This document shows, in pieces, positions 8,998 to 20,000 of a stretch of 20,000 nucleotides of DNA. Location of the stretch: assembly GCA_040387495.1 (NCBI GenBank), contig JAZKDQ010000003.1, forward strand, positions 175,182 through 195,181. Direction: 5' to 3'. Under the pieces are notes generated by a model. It was not told where the DNA came from, did not search any database, and saw only the letters and a list, made by a program, of their open reading frames with translations. The DNA comes from Pseudomonadota bacterium. GTDB taxonomy: Bacteria; Pseudomonadota; Alphaproteobacteria; Paracaedibacterales; CAIOTO01. The translations under genes and the position numbers were made by a program. Position 1 is the stretch's first letter; each line of letters opens with the position of its first letter.

Positions 8998-11583
8998 TCA
9001 GTTGTTTAAAAGGAACCATGTTGAGCCCGTAAGTATTTCGGTGTTGGTATTTGCTTCGTCTTGTACAATTACATTTGTCCCTCTTCCTGAAAGAATAATA
9101 GCAAAAGTCCCTATGTGTTTACCCTTTAAGGTCACTGTGTGTCCACCACTAATGATTAATACACCTGTTGTTCCACTAGGTGCATGGCATGTTATTGCCC
9201 CTGAGAAGGTTGTTGGTTGATTCACATTAATTGTAGCAATTGCATTGCCATCAGTTTCACTTGAACCGAAAGTGATTGGGTTTGTTATGATTGGCGTTCC
9301 CTTAGTACTAACTGAAAGCGTTGTTTTTTTGGAAAGGTCAATTGTGCCGCTTAGTGCACTTGTATTTGTTAGTGCAAGTGTGCCGGTTGATACAGTGACT
9401 GTGCCTGAGTAAGGAGTTGTCCCAGAAAACGTTAATGTACCTGGTCCTTTCTTCGTTACGTTATTAATAGAGCTTGTTATTCTTCCAGAGAAATTTGAAC
9501 CATTTTGAGCCGTAACTGTAAGGGTTGCTGTCTTGTCGCCTGAGCTGTGAATGGTTCCCCTGCCACTTGGATCAATCAATGTGCGTGCAGTTCCATTTAA
9601 GTCGTAAGTGCCTGACACAGTTACACCACTGGAGGCAGCAATGTCCCCGATAAGAGTGCTACCACTGTTAATGTTTATCATTCCTGTGTATGCATTTGCT
9701 AGGGATAATGTTAATACTTTAGATCCATTTATTGTTAAATTTTTAATTGTGTTGGCTATTATTCCAGAAAAAGTTGAACCATTTTTTGATGTAAGTGTAA
9801 GTGCTGCATTGGCGTTCGAGCTTTGAATTGTTCCTGTGCCGCTTGGATCAATTAATGTTCGTGCGGTCCCGTTTAAATCATAAATACCTGCTATTACAAC
9901 CCCAACAGATGTCCCTATGTTGCCAATGAGTTTCTTTCCAGAATTGATTGTTGTGGTACCTGTGTATGTATTGGCCGCTGGTAATGTTAATGTGCCAGAT
10001 CCAATGTGCTGTAATGCACCTGTTCCACTGATAACACCTGTATATGTATAAGAATCTGACCTATTGAATGAAAGTGTTGCATTATTGACGATATTGCTGC
10101 TTGCAATGCTACCTGTTGTGGCTCCTGCACCGATTTGCATTGTGCCGGTATTAATTATTGTTTTTCCCGAGTAGGTGTTTGCTCCAGATAGTATGATTGT
10201 TCCAGCACCAGATGTTGTGAATGTCCCTGTTCCAGCAATCACACCTGGATAGGTAGTAGCATCTGAACGATTGAATGTGAGCTTATCATTGTTAACGATA
10301 CTATTACTTGCAATACTGCCACTCGTAGAGCCTGAACCAATTTGTAAGGTACCATTCGTGATTGTTGTTGTGCCGGTATAGGTGTTTGTGCCAGTCAAGA
10401 TGAGTACACCCTTTCCATTTTTACGTAATGAATTGGCACCCGTTATATTGCCAGAGACTGTGAGTGAATAGGTAGATGTAGCTATGGTGCCTTCTGTTGT
10501 TAGAGTGATTGGCTGACTTAATATTAAGTTAGCATTTGCTTGAAGTATGCCTCCAGCAAGGATAATCATGCCAGACCCCATATTATTTGTAGATGCAATA
10601 TTTAGTGTTCCTGCCCTGATAATTGTGTTGCCGGTATATGTATTGGCACCTCTCAAAAGAGTTTTTCCAGATCCGATCTGTGTTAAAATACCTGTTCCAC
10701 TAATAACACCTGAATAGGTGTATTCATTTGATCTATTAAAAGAAAGTATTCCATTATTAACGATGCTGTTGCTTGTGATGCTGCCAGTTGTGGATCCTGC
10801 GCCAATTTGGAGGGTTCCTGCGCTTATAGTTGTAATTGTGCTGCTTGTCATATTATTAGTTCCTGACATGATAAAAGTGCCAGGCCCGGTTTTTGTCAAT
10901 CCATTAATTGTACTTGCTAATGTTCCAGAAAAAATTGTGGATTTTTCAAATGCAGATGATGCAAGTATCAATGCAGCAGAAGTGCTGCCTGAACTTCGAA
11001 TTGTTCCTGTACCACTAAGATCGATGAGAGTGCGTGCAGTTCCGCTTAAATCATATGTACCTGACACGGTTACACCGACAGACTTAGAAATGTCTCCGAC
11101 AAGTGTGCTGCCAGCATTAATGCTTGTTGCGCCTACATATGAGTTTGTTCCAGACAATATAAGAGTTTTAGATCCATTTACGGTTAAACTGTTAATTGTA
11201 TTTGCAATCGTTCCAGAAAAAGTCGAACCGTTTGTTAATGTGATTGTTAATGCTGCATTCGAATTTGAACTTTGAATGATTCCAGAACCGCTTGGGTCAA
11301 TTATTGTGCGCGTAGTCCCATTTAAATCATATCCAGCATTTGTTGTTACAACACTTGTTATTGCTGCTGGAGTAGTAATGGTTGCTGACACCGCCGTCGT
11401 TGTCTTTGCTGATGCACTTTGTGTGCCTGCACTTTTAAGATCTATATTTAAAAATATTGAACAAAATATAATATATTTCAAGAATAATTTGCTTAATAAA
11501 TATTGTTTGCTTTTAGCTATGTTGGTGTTTTTTTCTGAGTTTAAATCATAATTCGAGATAAGATAAGATGATTTAATACTCAT
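8998..11583 (-). CDS. Autotransporter-associated beta-strand repeat (PATR-type) protein, putative adhesin, no beta-barrel
   Basis: T/S/G/N/I-rich, with repeated (K/Q)xGxGTLxLSGxNTYTGxTxIxxGTL motifs and a hydrophobic segment at about aa 29-47. No C-terminal barrel. Confidence 0.85.
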   Translation of the reverse strand: MSIKSSYLISNYDLNSEKNTNIAKSKQYLLSKLFLKYIIFCSIFLNIDLKSAGTQSASAKTTTAVSATITTPAAITSVVTTNAGYDLNGTTRTIIDPSGSGIIQSSNSNAALTITLTNGSTFSGTIANTINSLTVNGSKTLILSGTNSYVGATSINAGSTLVGDISKSVGVTVSGTYDLSGTARTLIDLSGTGTIRSSGSTSAALILASSAFEKSTIFSGTLASTINGLTKTGPGTFIMSGTNNMTSSTITTISAGTLQIGAGSTTGSITSNSIVNNGILSFNRSNEYTYSGVISGTGILTQIGSGKTLLRGANTYTGNTIIRAGTLNIASTNNMGSGMIILAGGILQANANLILSQPITLTTEGTIATSTYSLTVSGNITGANSLRKNGKGVLILTGTNTYTGTTTITNGTLQIGSGSTSGSIASNSIVNNDKLTFNRSDATTYPGVIAGTGTFTTSGAGTIILSGANTYSGKTIINTGTMQIGAGATTGSIASSNIVNNATLSFNRSDSYTYTGVISGTGALQHIGSGTLTLPAANTYTGTTTINSGKKLIGNIGTSVGVVIAGIYDLNGTARTLIDPSGTGTIQSSNANAALTLTSKNGSTFSGIIANTIKNLTINGSKVLTLSLANAYTGMININSGSTLIGDIAASSGVTVSGTYDLNGTARTLIDPSGRGTIHSSGDKTATLTVTAQNGSNFSGRITSSINNVTKKGPGTLTFSGTTPYSGTVTVSTGTLALTNTSALSGTIDLSKKTTLSVSTKGTPIITNPITFGSSETDGNAIATINVNQPTTFSGAITCHAPSGTTGVLIISGGHTVTLKGKHIGTFAIILSGRGTNVIVQDEANTNTEILTGSTWFLLNN
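9421..11331 (-). repeat. Internal repeats of the adhesin: about 155-aa block A x2 (11331-10861, 9882-9421) and 69-aa block B x3 (10830-10624, 10365-10159, 10158-9952)
   Basis: Block A starts YDLNGT(T/A)RT(I/L)IDPSG and ends TKxGPGTxxxSG in both copies. Block B is xIxxGT(L/M)QIG(A/S)GxTxGSIxSxxIVNNxxLxFNRS...NTYxGxT. Confidence 0.88.
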
Positions 11584-12872: not shown

Positions 12873-13262
12873 TGGTTGAATAGAATGAATTTTTAAAAGA
12901 TGACTTATGAACTTATAGCAGGAATAAGGATATAAACCAATTGTTTTGAGTCACGTTGAAATGCGAATTAATTTGATTCTCTCATCTGTGAAAGATGAGC
13001 AGCCTTCTTTGTAAAACAAAGTTTATTTTATATATTATTCTGCTAGAGAAAAAAATCAAAGGGTTATATTCAAATTAAATCAAAATAATTTGTGCCTTTT
13101 AAATCTCATTTTGGTGAACTCGCTTGTTTCTTTATTGCTATTTATTTATTAAATCAGCATTATTAATATAAAATTATTTGTAATGAATTATGAATATTTA
13201 TCGTAATATGTAAATTAAATATCTACCTATTTATTTATTTGCACCTGTGAGGAAGTTTTCGA

Positions 13263-13298
13263 TTGACGCAAATTAACTAAATCTTTACCTTTTATAGT
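13263..13298 (+). promoter_or_regulatory. Putative sigma70-type promoter of the four-gene operon
   Basis: TTGACG (13263-13268), 17 bp, TACCTT (13286-13291). An alternative -10 TATAGT lies at 13293-13298. GAGAGA RBS-like sequence at about 13313-13318. Confidence 0.4.
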
Positions 13299-13326
13299 GT
13301 AAGGTTGAATTAGAGAGAAAAAGTGT

Positions 13327-14199
13327 ATGTATGTACCTATGCGTAATTTATTAAAATGTTTATCACTCTTGTTTGTTATGATGCTTCCTTTATCGATAAG
13401 TTATGGTGAAGCTCTGGATGCAGCAATGCAGCAAATGCAAACTCTAGCAATACCTGAAATACAACGTATTACGGAAAAAGGTAAGATTGTCGTATTGATG
13501 ACAAATACTGATTACAATCCGTTCTTTAGGATGAAAAGTTCGGATGGTAGCTATAAAGGCATTGATATGGAGATGGCACAGGCAGTTGCGGATTCTCTTG
13601 GTGTTAAACTTGAAGTTAAGGCAATTTACAAAAGCTATGATGATGTTGTAAATGCCATTGCAAAAGGTGAGGGCGATATTGGTATATCCAAAATGAGTTA
13701 TACCATTGAGAGATCAAAGAAGGTTTTGTTTTCTTCCCCATATGTAATATTTAAAAAATCACTTCTTATTAATCGCGTTCAGCTTTCCAAGATTGATAGT
13801 AAGAATTCATTAAAAGAAATAATGAATTCTGGTACACTTCCTATTGTTGTTGCGCCAGGTTCATATGATGACTTTTCCCTTGCATTGTTTCCTAAATCAA
13901 AACCAGAAGAAGTTGAGAAATGGGACTCTGATGGGATAAAAAAATTGTTAGAGGGTAAATATTTTGCTGCTTTCCGTGATGAATTGCGTATCAAGCTTGT
14001 ATTACGGAAAAATCCACAAGCAACATTGCACTTGCTCCCTGTTATTCTTAAAGATGAAGACGACCCTATCCGTATGATCGTTAACAAAGAGTGCTTTGGT
14101 CTTTGGCTGTGGGTAAATAGTTATCTTAGCAACAATATAAAGCCTTACACTTACGATGAGCTCTTTGCACGCTTTGGTCACCTTTTGAAGAATGATTAA
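13327..14199 (+). CDS. Periplasmic amino-acid-type substrate-binding protein (SBP_bac_3 family)
   Basis: Signal-peptide-like N-terminus, DYNPFF, GIDMEMAQAVADSLGVKLEV and GDIGISKMSYTIERSKKVLFSSPY. Alternative start at 13339. Confidence 0.88.
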   Translation: MYVPMRNLLKCLSLLFVMMLPLSISYGEALDAAMQQMQTLAIPEIQRITEKGKIVVLMTNTDYNPFFRMKSSDGSYKGIDMEMAQAVADSLGVKLEVKAIYKSYDDVVNAIAKGEGDIGISKMSYTIERSKKVLFSSPYVIFKKSLLINRVQLSKIDSKNSLKEIMNSGTLPIVVAPGSYDDFSLALFPKSKPEEVEKWDSDGIKKLLEGKYFAAFRDELRIKLVLRKNPQATLHLLPVILKDEDDPIRMIVNKECFGLWLWVNSYLSNNIKPYTYDELFARFGHLLKND

Positions 14200-14202
14200 T
14201 CC

Positions 14203-16599
14203 ATGGAACGGTTGAAAAATAGAAAATTAAAAATTGATATTGTTTCGTATTTTGTTGTGTTAATGACTATTACCATAACAATTATTTCGACAATCAATTT
14301 TCGCGAAAGTAAGAATAATACGTTCGTTTTGACAGGGAAGATTTTTGAAAAGTCCTTTTTGTTTGCTTCTACGAAAATTGGAAATTTATTCGCGGATGCC
14401 GAAGACAGTGGTAGTATGCTCGTTGATTATGTTGCACCAAAGATGGAGCAATTGGAAACAAGCAAGCCTTCGGAATTCTCTCAATTTGCACGTGCCCTTG
14501 AAATCAATCCTTATTTATTGAGTATATATGTTGCAAAAAGTGACGATCATTTTGTGCAAATGCGTCGTGTGCCTGCTGCAAGGTTATATCAACACGCACA
14601 AAGGGGGGAGCTTCCAGCGAATGCAACATACATATGGCGTTCAGTTGCACCGAATTCAAAAACTGAAAATTGGTCATATTTGAGTAAAGATCTTCGCGTA
14701 ATAGATGAGGAACAAGTTAAAGTAACATCAACTTCCAATCCCACTGAACGAGATTGGTATAGTAGTGCAGTTTATAAGAAAGCAAAATCATGGTCTGATG
14801 TCTATATATTTAAAACGTCGCAAACGCCTGGGTTAACGCTTTCGTTTCCTATAAAAGAGACTTACAGTCCTAATAAGAATACGAATAAAGGTCTGGACAA
14901 AGACGCGGACAAAGACGTAGATACAGATACAGATAAAGACAAAAATAAAGATGCGCCTAAAAATACCAGGGAGCATTTAGGCGTTTTGGCTATGGATATG
15001 ACAGTTGATTCTGCAAATTCATTTCTTAACACAATTAAAATTTCAGAAAATTCATCTATCATTGTTTTGAATGACGCTAAAAAAATAATTGCTTCTACAC
15101 AAAATGCAACGGTAGAGCAACCAACTAAGGCCCCAAGCTTGGCTATTAAAAGCACGACGATAGAAAATACAAAAGCAAAATTAAAAGACACTTCTTCTAG
15201 CAAAAAATCAGTAACTAAAGAGACGCTCGTTGCTGATGCTAAAAAAGAAGCCACAGAGGACAAAGAAAATCTACCAGAACCTAAGCTAACAGCAGTACAA
15301 GTGAAAACAATTGATACTATTTCTGATCCGATAGCAAAGTATTCATATTACAATTCTTTCCTTGATAATAAACATATTAATATTTTTACTATTGATAATG
15401 TTGATTATATATCATACACACATTCATTTGGTGCAAAAGATCGAAAGCTTTATTTTTCGATGCACGCCCCAATTTCTGATTTCTTATATGAAGTGCAGCG
15501 TGCAAATCAAAAAAGTTTACTGATTACGTTGGCTATTTCTATAGCGGCTATGATTATTCTTTATATATTTGCACGAAAAATTTCAGATCCAATTGCAAGA
15601 CTTGCAGAAGATGCGCGTAAAATTTCACAGTTGGATTTCCCTGGAACGAGTGTTTGCAAAACTAATATACGTGAAATACAAGATTTATCTAATTCAATGA
15701 ACACATTGAATCATAGTATAGGTATGTTTAGTAAATATATTCCTAAAGATCTTGCACTTAAATTGTTAGAAAAAGACGGTGATATTACAATTGGTGGTTC
15801 GAACCAAACAATTACAGCTTTATTCTCGGATATTGAAGGATTTACAACTATTTCTGAAGATGTCCCTGCAGAGTATTTGGTTTTACATCTATCTGAATAT
15901 TTCGAAGGATTAACAAATATTATTATAAATAACAAAGGAAGCATTGATAAATATATTGGGGATGCGATTATGGCCCTTTGGGGCGCGCCTTATGCAGATG
16001 AAAATCAGGTCCCGAATGCCTGCCGTGCAGCTTTACTCTGTCAACATAAACTGACAGAGCTTAATGAAGGCTGGGTTAAATTAGGTAAGCCAGCGCTTAA
16101 AACGCGCATTGGCTTGCATACAGGAGACGCTATTGTTGGAAACATAGGATCAAGTGATCGAATTAATTTCACGGCACTTGGAGACAGTATTAATCTTGCT
16201 GCACGTCTCGAAGGTCTAAATAAATACTACAATACCTCTATTATGGTATCACAGTCCATTTATGAGATTGCGCATTCACAATTCTTATTCAGAATTCTAG
16301 ATAAAGTTTCCGTAAAAGGAAAAAATAAAAGCATCTTAGTTTATGAATTAGTGTGCGAGACCGCGCAAAATAGCCCTGACTATATGAAGCATGTCCAATA
16401 CTCGGTTCGCGCGGGAGAAGCTTTCGAAGCTTATTTAGCTCGTGATTGGGAAAAGGCAATTGAATTTTATACGCGTATGCAAAAAGAATTTGTATGGGGA
16501 AGAGTGGCAAATGAGTTAATTATCAATCGTTGCCTGAATTACATACAAACGCCACCAAGTGATTCTTGGCAGGGCGAATATCAAATGACAGAAAAGTAA
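14203..16599 (+). CDS. Membrane-bound class III adenylate cyclase: TM-dCache-TM-HAMP-cyclase-C-terminal helical domain
   Basis: Two TM segments flank a Cache-like domain (PTERDWY, WSDVY, GVLAMD). HAMP (ISDPIARL...EIQDLSNSMN). Catalytic motifs FSDIEGFT, DKYIGDAIMA, RIGLHTG and FTALGDSINLAARLE; the Lys/Thr specificity pair indicates ATP (class IIIb). Confidence 0.92.
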   Translation: MERLKNRKLKIDIVSYFVVLMTITITIISTINFRESKNNTFVLTGKIFEKSFLFASTKIGNLFADAEDSGSMLVDYVAPKMEQLETSKPSEFSQFARALEINPYLLSIYVAKSDDHFVQMRRVPAARLYQHAQRGELPANATYIWRSVAPNSKTENWSYLSKDLRVIDEEQVKVTSTSNPTERDWYSSAVYKKAKSWSDVYIFKTSQTPGLTLSFPIKETYSPNKNTNKGLDKDADKDVDTDTDKDKNKDAPKNTREHLGVLAMDMTVDSANSFLNTIKISENSSIIVLNDAKKIIASTQNATVEQPTKAPSLAIKSTTIENTKAKLKDTSSSKKSVTKETLVADAKKEATEDKENLPEPKLTAVQVKTIDTISDPIAKYSYYNSFLDNKHINIFTIDNVDYISYTHSFGAKDRKLYFSMHAPISDFLYEVQRANQKSLLITLAISIAAMIILYIFARKISDPIARLAEDARKISQLDFPGTSVCKTNIREIQDLSNSMNTLNHSIGMFSKYIPKDLALKLLEKDGDITIGGSNQTITALFSDIEGFTTISEDVPAEYLVLHLSEYFEGLTNIIINNKGSIDKYIGDAIMALWGAPYADENQVPNACRAALLCQHKLTELNEGWVKLGKPALKTRIGLHTGDAIVGNIGSSDRINFTALGDSINLAARLEGLNKYYNTSIMVSQSIYEIAHSQFLFRILDKVSVKGKNKSILVYELVCETAQNSPDYMKHVQYSVRAGEAFEAYLARDWEKAIEFYTRMQKEFVWGRVANELIINRCLNYIQTPPSDSWQGEYQMTEK
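14896..14955 (+). repeat. Degenerate 12-bp tandem repeat x5 inside the cyclase Cache domain (DKDA DKDV DTDT DKDK NKDA)
   Basis: GACAAAGACGCG GACAAAGACGTA GATACAGATACA GATAAAGACAAA AATAAAGATGCG. Confidence 0.7.
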
Positions 16600-16614
16600 G
16601 AGAGAGTGTGCATT

Positions 16615-17889
16615 ATGAAAAATCAATTTATTAAAAAAAACGGACCTATTTTTGGCGCAATTTTTTTGGGCGTATATCTTGGTATTTATCAGAAAGCTTT
16701 CAGTCAAAATCTGGAAATTATTTCAGAGATTTATTTATCCACCATTTCTTTTACAATTATACCAATTACTTTGACTCTTCTTGCTTTTAGCATAAGCTCT
16801 CTTATGACAACAACAACACTTTCTATGTCCGCGCGTCGTGTGTGGATGATTATTATAGGAGCTTTGTTTGTTGGCACAGGTATTGCGGTGGGGACAGCGT
16901 CGCTCTGGATTCACTTACAACATTTGTACGCAGCAGGCGCACCGTTAGTACCTAATTTGTCAACGAATGCAGCGAAAACGATTCATTATTTGTCAGTAAA
17001 CGACACGTTGGGCGATCTTAATAACATTCGTTTTGATACTTTTATTGCTACTTTGATACCTAAAAATATCTTCAACTCATTAGCGACAGGCAATAGCTTA
17101 CAAGTTTTTGTCATTTCAGTAATGATTGGTATGGCAATAAGCACACGAACTCCAGAACAACGAGCATCAATTTTAAATAGCTTTTCTTCAATTCGATCAA
17201 TTTTTACTGCTATTTTACAAGCTTCTCTTAGTATTCTTCCAATTGGTTTGGTGGCTATTATATCTACGAGTTTGCTAAAAATAGAGGCATCACTTTTCTT
17301 AGCTATGCTGCCTTTTGTATATTGGCTCTTCGCTGCTTATGGGATTTTAGCTATTATTTCTTTGATTATTTTAAAATGTTATAGTCCTCTTTCCATTACA
17401 GAAATGCTAAAAGCAACTCGCGAAGCACTCTACGTATCTTTTTCAACAGGCAGCAACCAAGCTGCATTACCTCTCCTTATGGATGCCCTTGAAGAAAAGG
17501 TGGGTTTTAAGAAAGCTCAAATTGAAACCATAATCCCGTTATTTGTTATCGTATGTCGCGTAACGAGTGCTTCGTACTTTGCTTTTACCAGTGTTTTTAT
17601 TGCTGCTGTTTATAATATACCACTTGAACCTATGCAATATCTTTTCATCATGTTTGCCGCAGTTTTGGCGAGCTTGGCTTCATCGGGGTCAAATAGTTTA
17701 GTTGGATTTTCCATGATTACACTTATTCTCAATCCCTTAGGAGTTCCTTTAGGTGAAGTTGGTGCAATTCTTTTGATATTGGAACCATTTATTGATCCAT
17801 TTCGTACAGCACTTTCTATGCTTATTGTGACCAGTCTTTCCTGCGTAATTTTAGACAAAAAAGGCGAGCTTAAAGAGGTTGCAGCATGA
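16615..17889 (+). CDS. Dicarboxylate/amino acid:cation symporter (DAACS/SDF) family protein, divergent
   Basis: Polytopic membrane protein with IPKNIFNSL..GNSLQV, HP1-like FSTGSNQAALP, TM7 IIPL...ASY..SVFIA and TM8 DPFRT. ATG 16615 is preferred over GTG 16606 because GAGAGAG lies 8 nt upstream. Confidence 0.85.
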   Translation: MKNQFIKKNGPIFGAIFLGVYLGIYQKAFSQNLEIISEIYLSTISFTIIPITLTLLAFSISSLMTTTTLSMSARRVWMIIIGALFVGTGIAVGTASLWIHLQHLYAAGAPLVPNLSTNAAKTIHYLSVNDTLGDLNNIRFDTFIATLIPKNIFNSLATGNSLQVFVISVMIGMAISTRTPEQRASILNSFSSIRSIFTAILQASLSILPIGLVAIISTSLLKIEASLFLAMLPFVYWLFAAYGILAIISLIILKCYSPLSITEMLKATREALYVSFSTGSNQAALPLLMDALEEKVGFKKAQIETIIPLFVIVCRVTSASYFAFTSVFIAAVYNIPLEPMQYLFIMFAAVLASLASSGSNSLVGFSMITLILNPLGVPLGEVGAILLILEPFIDPFRTALSMLIVTSLSCVILDKKGELKEVAA

Positions 17890-19001
17890 TAAGCACTCTG
17901 CAGCCATTTGATGCATTTTGTGCCTGGGGATATGATTCCTCAGTCATAAAGATGTTGGATCGTTTGACTTGGAGACAGAAAAAAATAGATGTAGTTGCAA
18001 ATAACATTGCTCAGATTAAAGGTATTATAGAAAAGAATAAGGATGCTTCTTCTTTAGGAACATCCATTATTTTCTTAAATGTAACATCTTTGAATACAGA
18101 CTATTCGTGTTCATTTTTTATTGGTCTTTTGCCATTTGCGAATCATAAAATTTATAAGCATGAACGTACACGTATTAGTAAAACAGAAGCTTATGAAAAG
18201 TTAATGAATCAATATCAATTGCAAGTGTCCCCCATTATGCTGTTGCGCGAAAATTCAACGGTTTTTGACCATTTATCGATGGATATTCTAAAGACACCTC
18301 CTATGCGTACGTATAGCGAGAATGATTTGCGATTTGATATATATGCATGCACGGATGCGAATCAACTTAAAGAAATTCAAGAGCTATCTTCTGAGGACGA
18401 ATGTTTTTTTCTTGCTGATGGACACCATCGTTATTCATATTTTGAAAAGCATGCAGATAAGCACCCACTGTGTATGGTCGCGATGACAACAATTGATCAA
18501 CAACAAATGACTGTATGCCCTCGTGCGTTGCATTGTCCGTCTCGGTATTCAACGGAAGAGATTTTACATCGGTTGTCTCACTATTTTCATATTTCTGAAT
18601 CAGCAGAGGATCCATCGAATAATTATGTACTTATTTGGGATAAAAAAGAATTTACTTTGCGTTTAAGAGATACGTTTAAAAATGAAGATCCACTGTGTTT
18701 CTTCTCATCTTTTATCACAGATGAACTTATTTTCAAGCATGCATTTGGACACGATGCTCTGCAAGATCGTGAGATTCGGGGCATTGCAGGTCATTGTAAA
18801 ATCCAAGATGCAAATGAAGTCCTTGTAAAGCTGAATGGTAAAGATGAAGTTCTTGTTTTTCCTCCCCTTTTTGACAAACATTTATTGTTAGATCATGCGA
18901 CGGATAATTTTTTCTTGCCAACTACATCCACTTGTTTTTCACCAAAAATACCTGATGGGCTTATTGTTTTTGACTCATCCTTTGGGCTAGGCATAAGATA
19001 A
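17886..19001 (+). CDS. DUF1015 family protein (ParB/Srx-like GHHR motif), divergent
   Basis: IYKHERT, SPIML, FLADGHHRY and C-terminal STCFSPKIPDGL match my recollection of the DUF1015 motifs (HExT, ADGHHR, STxFxPKxxxGL). ATGA overlap with the DAACS gene. Confidence 0.78.
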   Translation: MISTLQPFDAFCAWGYDSSVIKMLDRLTWRQKKIDVVANNIAQIKGIIEKNKDASSLGTSIIFLNVTSLNTDYSCSFFIGLLPFANHKIYKHERTRISKTEAYEKLMNQYQLQVSPIMLLRENSTVFDHLSMDILKTPPMRTYSENDLRFDIYACTDANQLKEIQELSSEDECFFLADGHHRYSYFEKHADKHPLCMVAMTTIDQQQMTVCPRALHCPSRYSTEEILHRLSHYFHISESAEDPSNNYVLIWDKKEFTLRLRDTFKNEDPLCFFSSFITDELIFKHAFGHDALQDREIRGIAGHCKIQDANEVLVKLNGKDEVLVFPPLFDKHLLLDHATDNFFLPTTSTCFSPKIPDGLIVFDSSFGLGIR

Positions 19002-19081
19002 AACAGAAATTTGAATTAAGATGTGCCTGAAAAGTTTAGCCCGGCGCCATTACTCTCTCTTTCTAATGTAGTAACCAAAAT

Positions 19082-19103
19082 AGAGATTGAAGAATCTCTT
19101 TTT
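19082..19103 (+). terminator. Possible intrinsic terminator of the four-gene operon
   Basis: AGAGATT-GAAG-AATCTCT followed by TTTT. The stem is AU-rich. Confidence 0.45.
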
Positions 19104-19107
19104 ATAC

Positions 19108-19968
19108 GGGTTTGTTGCACGAATAGAAATTACATAAAACTTGGTGTACGCTTGGCTGTAAATCATTATAAATGATCACTTTCATGTCTTATACTCTTAA
19201 AGATCCTGTTCGCCATAAATTCACAAAGAAATCTTACAATGTACGTGATTGGGCAAAATATGATGAAGGTCTTAAAAACCGTGGAAGCTTGACGACTTGG
19301 TTTTCCGAAGATGCCATTTCTGCATGGAATCATGTCAAACCTGACAAAATGAAACGTGGAGGACAGCGTGTTTATTCAGATCTTGCGATTGAAACTGCCC
19401 ATACTCTTCGTTTGGTTTACAAGCAACCCTTGCGTCAAACGGAAGGATTGCTCACATCGATTATGCAGCTTCTTAGCATAGATTTACCCATTCCAGATTA
19501 TACAACCTTATCCAGGCGCGCCAAACGGATTGTCCTTTCAAAACAACCAAAAGCTTCATCGGATTCACGTGTCGTTATTGTAGATAACACCGGTTTGCAA
19601 GTTGTTGGAGAAAAGGAATGAATGAACCACAAACACGGTACAAAGCAGCGGAAATTCTGGCGTAAACTACATTTAGCCATTAATGAAGACGGTGAAATCT
19701 TAAGTGCAACCCTTACAACACATCATGAGAGCGATGTAAGCCAAGTACCTAATTTGCTTGCCGAAATTGATTCGCCAATCGATACATTTTATGGAGATGC
19801 TGGCTGATATGATCATCCAGGAACATACGCAGCTCTTGATAATCATGAACAACGTTTTAATCAAGAAACATCTATTCGAACGGTGATCCCTCCGAATCTT
19901 GGTTTTAGGCCACTCCAGGAAAGTGATTCTGAAAAGCGCGCCTCGATTTTCTTTTGTGCAACATGTAT
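19108..19968 (+). mobile_element. Decayed IS5-family (IS903 group) insertion sequence
   Basis: Left end GGGTTTGTTGCACGAATAGAAAT resembles IS903-type GGCTTTGTTG. A partial inverted copy (ATTTTCTTTTGTGCAACA) lies at 19946-19963. The two enclose a transposase remnant. No target duplication seen. Confidence 0.8.
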
Positions 19969-19975
19969 CTGGTAA
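19172..19975 (+). pseudogene. IS5/IS903-group DDE transposase pseudogene
   Basis: DWAKYDEGLKNRGSLTTW, YSDLAIET, LRQTEG, PDYTTLSRR, IVDNTGL, WRKLHLAI, GDAG*YD and VIPP, all in one frame. In-frame TGA stops at 19619 and 19805. Similarity is lost after about 19940 and the C-terminal catalytic Glu region is missing. Confidence 0.9.
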
Positions 19976-20000
19976 TTAAGCTTATAAAGGAGTAGCTATT

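Follow-up and report, generated by a model that had tools for sequence, protein, structure and literature searches.

A solute-binding protein and a divergent DAACS carrier form a conserved core with an optional dCache cyclase: a candidate module for amino-acid uptake and cAMP signalling

The window analysed here, a stretch of 20,000 nucleotides (nt) from alphaproteobacterial contig JAZKDQ010000003.1, carries at 13327..19001 four open reading frames on the plus strand. Pfam profiles assign them to a family 3 solute-binding protein (SBP; SBP_bac_3), a cyclase, a transporter of the DAACS/SLC1 family and a DUF1015 protein. The SBP gene (13327..14199, +) encodes 290 amino acids (aa) with an N-terminal hydrophobic segment (PF00497, E 3e-20). 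It is followed by the cyclase gene (14203..16599, +; 798 aa; Guanylate_cyc, E 5e-20; PDC match under the cut-off), the DAACS gene (16615..17889, +; 424 aa from its ATG, an alternative in-frame GTG start lying at 16606; SDF, PF00375, E 7e-48) and the DUF1015 gene (17886..19001, +; 371 aa; PF06245, E 3e-21). The open reading frame calls confirmed the spacing given in a preliminary description of this DNA, namely 3 nt, 15 nt (to the DAACS ATG) and an ATGA overlap between same-strand genes, and the four genes form one putative transcription unit.

The presumed promoter region is the gap of 454 nt at 12873..13326 (no strand), upstream of which tgt runs divergently from the cluster. The AT-richness noted earlier for this gap was confirmed (27% G+C in 13001-13500, about 39% contig-wide), and promoter matches were no more frequent than chance predicts (28, against 28.9 expected). 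The terminator-like hairpin described downstream does exist and is followed by a T run (19082..19105, +; folding energy −7.7 kcal/mol for 19075-19110). It is weak, however, since the 7-bp stem at 19082-19099 has just two G-C pairs, and it was absent from the output of the terminator scan, so that it is best called a possible terminator. The hairpin adjoins a DDE_Tnp_1_5 transposase gene broken by stop codons (19172-20000), directly past the cluster. Recent foreign origin of the cluster was considered and rejected, because its GC and GC3 are lowish yet within the genome range (14th-45th percentile).

The distribution of these genes was analysed in other genomes, as the preliminary description had proposed. 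The DUF1015 protein was matched in 4 of 61 genomes, its own included, and one of these genomes, from another family, has the complete four-gene set in unchanged order within a different context. A class-wide search matched DUF1015 in 42 of 401 genomes, and three of the eight weak-scoring loci that were fetched turned out to be the module. DUF1015 lies immediately 3' of this DAACS, in the same four-gene order, in 10 genomes, all of small-genome alphaproteobacteria and several of them incomplete or of unstated completeness. For the neighbourhood tally, 49 non-canonical DAACS rows from 42 genomes were compared with 20 canonical DAACS controls, the latter with a 1.4 kb flank only. A contig scan with a narrow SBP pattern had given 18 loci from close lineages, of which eight repeats (L102, L105, L106, L114-L118) and two loci without DAACS on the contig (L101, L107) were dropped before the tally. 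It can be seen that a matching SBP lies within 3.5 kb of the DAACS in 43/49 rows, or 35/41 after removal of eight rows found via the SBP query, and that five of the six absences fall at contig edges. Within 1.4 kb, an SBP or cyclase accompanies 43 of the 49 non-canonical genes, as against two of the 20 canonical controls, where the SBP is unrelated and convergent. Among 60 metagenome loci picked by the DAACS motif alone (many of them short contigs and many close kin), the SBP was found in 47, the cyclase in 26, an Asp/Glu racemase in 16 and DUF1015 in none. Names attached to clade members also include Spirochaetota, Saccharophagus and a cyanobacterium. Over 51 pairs, the distances between the SBPs follow those between the DAACS proteins (r 0.81), a correlation that common descent would suffice to explain.

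These results indicate that the conserved core consists of the SBP_bac_3 protein and a DAACS clade with an x-R-x motif, that the dCache cyclase is a frequent but optional third member, and that DUF1015 is an add-on of one lineage, in whose slot an Asp/Glu racemase is found elsewhere. The four-part module of the preliminary description thus holds in that the cluster is conserved, and fails in that it is no fixed four-part unit. In trees of the DAACS, SBP and cyclase, which took in 6 of the 10 DUF1015-module genomes, the DUF1015-module loci fall in a single clade (support 1.0, 0.995 and 0.999, respectively). Because this clade also includes loci without DUF1015, we infer that the gene was gained once and sometimes lost afterwards. 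In five scanned genome loci the module is bordered by racemases, and both cysteine motifs are present in 13 of the 16 listed. Neighbours seen in single cases were serC, a glutamate-cysteine ligase gene and a DcaP porin gene. In L157 (3383-8567) and L156 (4453-8684) an RpiR regulator and anmK lie close to the SBP-DAACS-racemase genes, a hint of recycling of D-Glu or the cell wall. In L192, L194, L195 and L199 a dCache chemoreceptor gene, a possible second output, lies 3' of the SBP-DAACS(-racemase) genes. An explanation of the module by racemase loss was rejected as unspecific, the family being missing in 24 of 27 genomes tested, with or without DUF1015.

Gene fusions were surveyed in the best 150 profile hits to this DAACS. 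DAACS-dCache-cyclase fusions account for three proteins (1154-1206 aa), three others are fusions of the type signal-SBP-transmembrane segment (TM)-DAACS, and five DAACS proteins (P0035, P0093, P0055, P0029 and P0077) carry a C-terminal SBP-like domain. A homologue search limited to 901-2570 residues had missed the fusions, a false negative that the profile search recovered. The DAACS-cyclase fusions are in-frame and comprise three clusters at 50% identity plus three metagenome loci. One cluster has 16 members, one of them named Treponema, and Candidatus Wallbacteria is also among the names of fusion proteins. In the DAACS family the N- and C-terminus are both cytoplasmic, and the predicted layouts of the DAACS-cyclase and SBP-TM-DAACS proteins fit this topology; the C-terminal SBP-like domains are probably cytoplasmic and look degenerate. 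In L158, L160 and L162, beside a racemase, a DAACS with a C-terminal SBP-like domain is accompanied by another DAACS, this one fused to the cyclase, and a heterotrimer of the paired copies is possible. Since the SBP gene is linked or fused to the carrier gene across lineages, transport by this DAACS clade is probably SBP-dependent, and the DAACS-cyclase fusions back a putative link between transporter and cyclase.

The window carrier belongs clearly to DAACS/SLC1 (163.9 bits, cut-off 27.9). Its structural model has a GltPh/GltTk-type fold, with a Foldseek TM score of about 0.7 to GltTk/AncInt and 9bgz as best structural match. According to PMC12668577, sodium coupling in this fold has the signature N310, M/S311, D/E312 and D/E405, and proton coupling that of L311 with N405. 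The window carrier has neither. Its NMDGT motif is replaced by C314-R-V-T-S318 (NMD to CRV); C314, R315, V316 and V405 stand against the sodium signature, and R315 and V405 against the proton signature. The loss of the ion-coupling signature agrees with the earlier designation of this carrier as uncoupled. NMD or NLD occurs in none of the 49 non-canonical rows, although N405 is present in many relatives, and Arg occupies position 311 in 44 of these rows and in 114 of 150 clade representatives. D394, R397 and T398 are retained in the window carrier, while N401 and D405 are lost. With respect to the set typical of acidic amino acid carriers (T314, D394, R397, N401), D394 and R397 are thus retained, and T314 and N401 are both changed to Ser. 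D394 and T398 are also mostly retained among the 150 clade members. The carrier therefore probably works without sodium or proton coupling, as judged from these residues. Replacement of a cation by Arg has precedent in other transporter folds, and by analogy Arg in place of Met311 may take over the part of the cation here. Uncoupled DAACS homologues still transport; they neighbour amino-acid enzymes and may depend on them for a gradient (PMC12668577).

The closest solved structures to the window SBP are amino-acid SBPs. In alignments it retains S124, R129 and D218, which we take to contact the amino and carboxyl groups of the ligand, as residues of this type do in family 3 SBPs, and which bear out its earlier classification as an amino-acid SBP. 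Additional residues typical of the clade (K122, R150 and R217) suggest a ligand with an anionic side chain. That the SBP is the orphan partner of an ABC permease was rejected, as the sole polar amino-acid permease found in the genome has its own SBP.

The cyclase has the layout TM-dCache-TM-HAMP-like-catalytic, with hydrophobic segments at 13-31 and 439-457 by hydropathy. Residues D543, D587, K583, T657, N664 and R668 are all intact and were invariant in the 11 aligned sequences; we take them to be the two metal-binding Asp, the Lys and Thr/Asp that specify ATP, and the transition-state Asn and Arg of class III cyclases. All six catalytic residues being present, the protein is a predicted membrane class III adenylate cyclase, and no second class III cyclase was found in the host genome. 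The amino-acid motif of dCache_1AA domains is Y121, R126, W128, Y144 and D173 of PctA (PMC8915833). In the window cyclase the first Tyr is S178 and the other four positions are retained (R183, W185, Y201 and D265), in line with the amino-acid-like ligand proposed earlier. The motif is complete in three DAACS-cyclase fusions and many relatives. PF02743 gave matches in fusion proteins but none to the window cyclase, in which a low-complexity insertion stretches the Y-to-D spacing to 64 residues, compared with 30 in G025. Two such insertions, one Lys/Asp-rich and one Lys/Thr-rich, are encoded at 14862-15290 in the periplasmic domain and are found in none of 10 aligned relatives. In three genomes of one genus (L231 3417-9598, L232 3348-9512 and L233 163-6414) the neighbours of a related cyclase are a sensor-MFS fusion, a binding protein of PF04392 and a small membrane protein without annotation. 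Both MFS-linked cyclases that were aligned (L231, L233) have lost the amino-acid motif, which suggests that the motif is used when a DAACS is the partner. The cyclase seems to be an exchangeable output unit that various SBP-linked carriers can use.

The DUF1015 protein of the window scores 76 bits (cut-off 25.8) and retains H92-E93, DGHHR at 178-182, which includes the GHHR motif noted before, and R213. Its structural model (pLDDT 88) gave nine Foldseek matches at E < 0.001, SerK and SbnI alone. Superposition on SerK/SbnI gave Z 13.2 with a root-mean-square deviation of 4.2-4.9 over about 218 residues, the next match having Z 5.5. The protein is thus predicted to fold like SerK/SbnI, in accord with the earlier assignment to this enzyme type. 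The HE of the profile is matched by His29-Glu30 in the SerK-type entry 1vk1; the aligned segment by itself does not reach significance. A PDB sequence search with the DUF1015 protein gave nothing significant. The GapMind 2026 preprint (10.1101/2024.10.14.618325) names the family SerBK, proposes a serine kinase and reports that one member complements E. coli serB. No serA-family match was found in any of the 10 DUF1015-module genomes and no serC in 9 of the 10; beside canonical DUF1015 loci, serA or serC occurred in 0 of 30 (1.5 kb flanks, one query each). The host genome has three PALP matches, none cysteine-synthase-like by length. Phosphoserine would therefore have no obvious consumer, and the direction from phosphoserine to serine, fed by an importer of acidic ligands, fits best. 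In this clade DUF1015 may turn imported phosphoserine into serine.

Two other roles of DUF1015 were rejected: a homoserine kinase feeding ThrC, since thrC was found in just two of five module genomes, and a supplier of SerC/SerA, since serA/serC were missing from the module genomes searched. Nine module-bearing genomes (G011, G024, G025, G032, G086, G265, G394, G405 and G451) were observed to have serC and no serA-family match. In L060 (5758-12474) a short DUF1015 gene shares an operon with genes for a PALP enzyme, an ornithine cyclodeaminase-like protein, a carbamoyltransferase, a methyltransferase and AurF. There its product may take the place of SbnI in an SbnA/SbnB-like pathway, which, if so, backs serine-kinase activity of the family. 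In L064 (7900-12194) a highly divergent DUF1015 gene has SelA-like, JmjC and aldo-keto reductase genes as neighbours. The contig end with a canonical DUF1015 gene in L007 (4876-8267; G031) looks foreign to the remaining contig, possibly through chimeric assembly.

The host genome is 1.66 Mb in size and 99.9% complete. It has four matches to TLC nucleotide translocases, and related loci stand in records titled Holosporales; the host is therefore likely an intracellular alphaproteobacterium. A role of the system as host-entry sensor, put forward in the preliminary description, is not the general role of the core, which is also present in larger genomes of other lineages. Proteins with a cyclic-nucleotide-binding (cNMP) domain found in the host genome are just two, an MscS-cNMP channel and a stand-alone domain of 116 aa, and no CRP-sized match was found there. 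MscS-cNMP was also the cNMP protein in all four other DUF1015-module genomes checked. A cAMP phosphodiesterase was not identified in the host genome, which has one metallophosphoesterase match.

Taken together, the above results make it on balance probable that the clade is an SBP-fed, ion-uncoupled carrier of acidic amino acids, physically partnered with an amino-acid-sensing cyclase and accompanied by a cytoplasmic enzyme that removes the cargo. The periplasmic SBP would capture an acidic amino acid and pass it to the DAACS-fold carrier, to which co-occurrence, fusions and pocket residues point. The carrier, having lost the coupling signatures, would work without sodium or protons, with Arg at the Met311 position in place of the cation. 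The cytoplasmic enzyme, an Asp/Glu racemase in most lineages and DUF1015 here, would maintain the inward gradient. The dCache pocket of the cyclase would itself bind an amino acid while the cyclase is complexed with the carrier, as its motif and the fusions suggest, and the state of the carrier would gate or tune the cyclase, as DctA does for DcuS/DctS. The cAMP formed may then act on the MscS-cNMP channel and the stand-alone cNMP protein. For the DUF1015 clade, O-phosphoserine converted to serine is the cargo that we tentatively favour; Asp/Glu is possible to the same degree, and some other cargo slightly less so. A bolder version is doubtful. It holds that in several phyla an SBP-loaded DAACS with Arg for its sodium sites gates the cyclase directly by its elevator movement, and that an endosymbiont clade has been retuned to the conversion of host phosphoserine to serine, signalling to a cAMP-binding MscS-like channel without CRP.

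Several observations weigh against these proposals. About half of the non-canonical DAACS genes have no neighbouring cyclase (one of this type lies within 3.5 kb in 25/49, in shuffled gene order), the cyclase is without any match in two of the five larger genomes that were tested, and many loci are close kin, so that the neighbourhood counts are not independent. Five relatives without a detected DAACS have one similar cyclase each, alone in two and beside another transporter set in three; the two that stand alone retain the dCache motif residues R, W, Y and D. The dCache pocket could function without a carrier. Proteins of MscS-cNMP size are present in module-free relatives as well. As to phosphoserine, the SBP pocket is almost identical between DUF1015-linked and racemase-linked modules, giving no clear sign of a switch. 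The Lys of the PPKST motif, found in all 27 complete canonical motifs listed, is Thr in the window DUF1015, which is also the least conserved part of the module (32% to G025, against 40-54% for the other parts), and running the kinase in reverse is thermodynamically unfavourable (10.1101/2024.10.14.618325).

Some of these points would be expected if the genes encoded two physically independent devices that are co-transcribed, one an SBP-dependent DAACS importer with its catabolic enzyme, the other a dCache cyclase with direct sensing of the same amino acid. The cyclase does keep four of the five motif residues here, and all five in many relatives; related cyclases stand alone or swap partners; the SBP and DAACS occur without it, once beside the DcaP porin and in one genus beside the RpiR regulator and racemase; and the four dCache chemoreceptor loci agree. 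We nevertheless consider this unlikely in view of the in-frame, topologically compatible DAACS-cyclase fusions and of the same DUF1015 clade in all three trees. A closer association is assumed if the DAACS is a non-transporting receptor subunit that relays the signal of the liganded SBP to the cyclase by a conformational change. The lack of both ion signatures, the loss of N401, the variability of R397 (present in just 84 of 150 clade members, which also counts against the uncoupled carrier) and the operons with two DAACS copies, one fused to the cyclase, would suit such a subunit. It seems improbable, since DAACS genes are found with a porin or racemase and no signalling neighbour, D394 and T398 are mostly retained, and uncoupled homologues still transport (PMC12668577). 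Finally, the SBP might dock on the dCache domain and activate the cyclase in the manner of ScrB/ScrC or NspS/MbaA, the DAACS being an ordinary neighbour. SBP_bac_3 proteins do activate dCache-like receptors (PMC8050422), and the two genes are adjacent in the window. However, the SBP tracks the DAACS, persists without the cyclase and is fused to the DAACS, and cyclases away from DAACS lack such an SBP, which makes this very unlikely.

Elsewhere in the window, at 8998-11583, an 861-aa protein with passenger-associated transport repeats is encoded, for which Pfam gave no autotransporter barrel match.

The clade bears on several questions. PMC12344293 asks whether elevator-type carriers alone can use a binding protein, and calls for new classes as a test; SLC1/DAACS being the model elevator, the clade is a direct test of this question. 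How ion coupling works in the glutamate-transporter fold can likewise be studied in this clade as a natural experiment, since the clade is large, has no NMD and carries Arg in place of Met311. With the DAACS-cyclase fusions, transporter-gated cAMP signalling could be approached in a single chain. A table passage of an SBP review (PMC8050422) names no cyclase among SBP-linked receptors. Retention of the module in genomes of 0.7-1 Mb suggests importance for host-dependent life, and DUF1015 gains a context outside the serA/serC pathway. Should the elevator-gated version be true, it would be a new SBP-dependent carrier class and a transporter-gated cyclase in one.

The preliminary description knew of no system of this kind. 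Its signalling logic has a precedent in B. subtilis DctS/DctB/DctA and, with E. coli DcuS/DctA, in transporters acting as co-sensors of a membrane sensor (review PMC6978683). As in DctS/DctB/DctA, a binding protein and a DAACS-family transporter would serve a membrane sensor. In contrast, the output domain here is Guanylate_cyc (cAMP) and not a histidine kinase with response regulator, the binding protein belongs to family 3, NMD/NLD is missing from the DAACS, which elsewhere in the clade occurs in fusions with the SBP or cyclase, and an amino-acid enzyme is attached. Gene order and fusion tie the SBP to an elevator-type secondary carrier, as in TAXI-GltS of Bordetella pertussis and TRAP/TTT (PMC12344293); that paper names TRAP and TTT as the sole earlier SBP-dependent families. 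Those systems combine DctP, TctC or TAXI with DctQM, TctAB or GltS, while Pfam finds only SBP_bac_3 and SDF here; the SBP family is different, the carrier is DAACS/SLC1 and not ESS or TRAP, its ion-coupling residues are lost and it is cyclase-linked. The uncoupled AncInt/ExtInt homologues (PMC12668577) share the fold, the incomplete ion signature and the amino-acid enzyme neighbours, but AncInt retains NMD where the window clade has x-R-x, and 'binding protein' does not occur in the main text of that paper. DUF1015 resembles SerBK and SerK/SbnI in family, fold and the HE and DGHHR motifs (10.1101/2024.10.14.618325); compared with canonical SerBK, the window protein is about 40 residues shorter, 17-20% identical, has the PPKST Lys replaced, and stands in genomes without the serA/serC context. 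The cyclase shares R, W, the second Y and D with the dCache_1AA receptors (PMC8915833) and differs in the Ser at the first Tyr and the long Y-to-D spacing. Searches of the open-licence literature, outside which most subscription papers lie, found no description of the module, and the supplements of PMC12668577 and PMC8915833 may list clade members. Compared with these systems, the SBP-DAACS-cyclase core with its fusions is apparently the new, undescribed part, and the four-gene form of the window is a clade variant of it.

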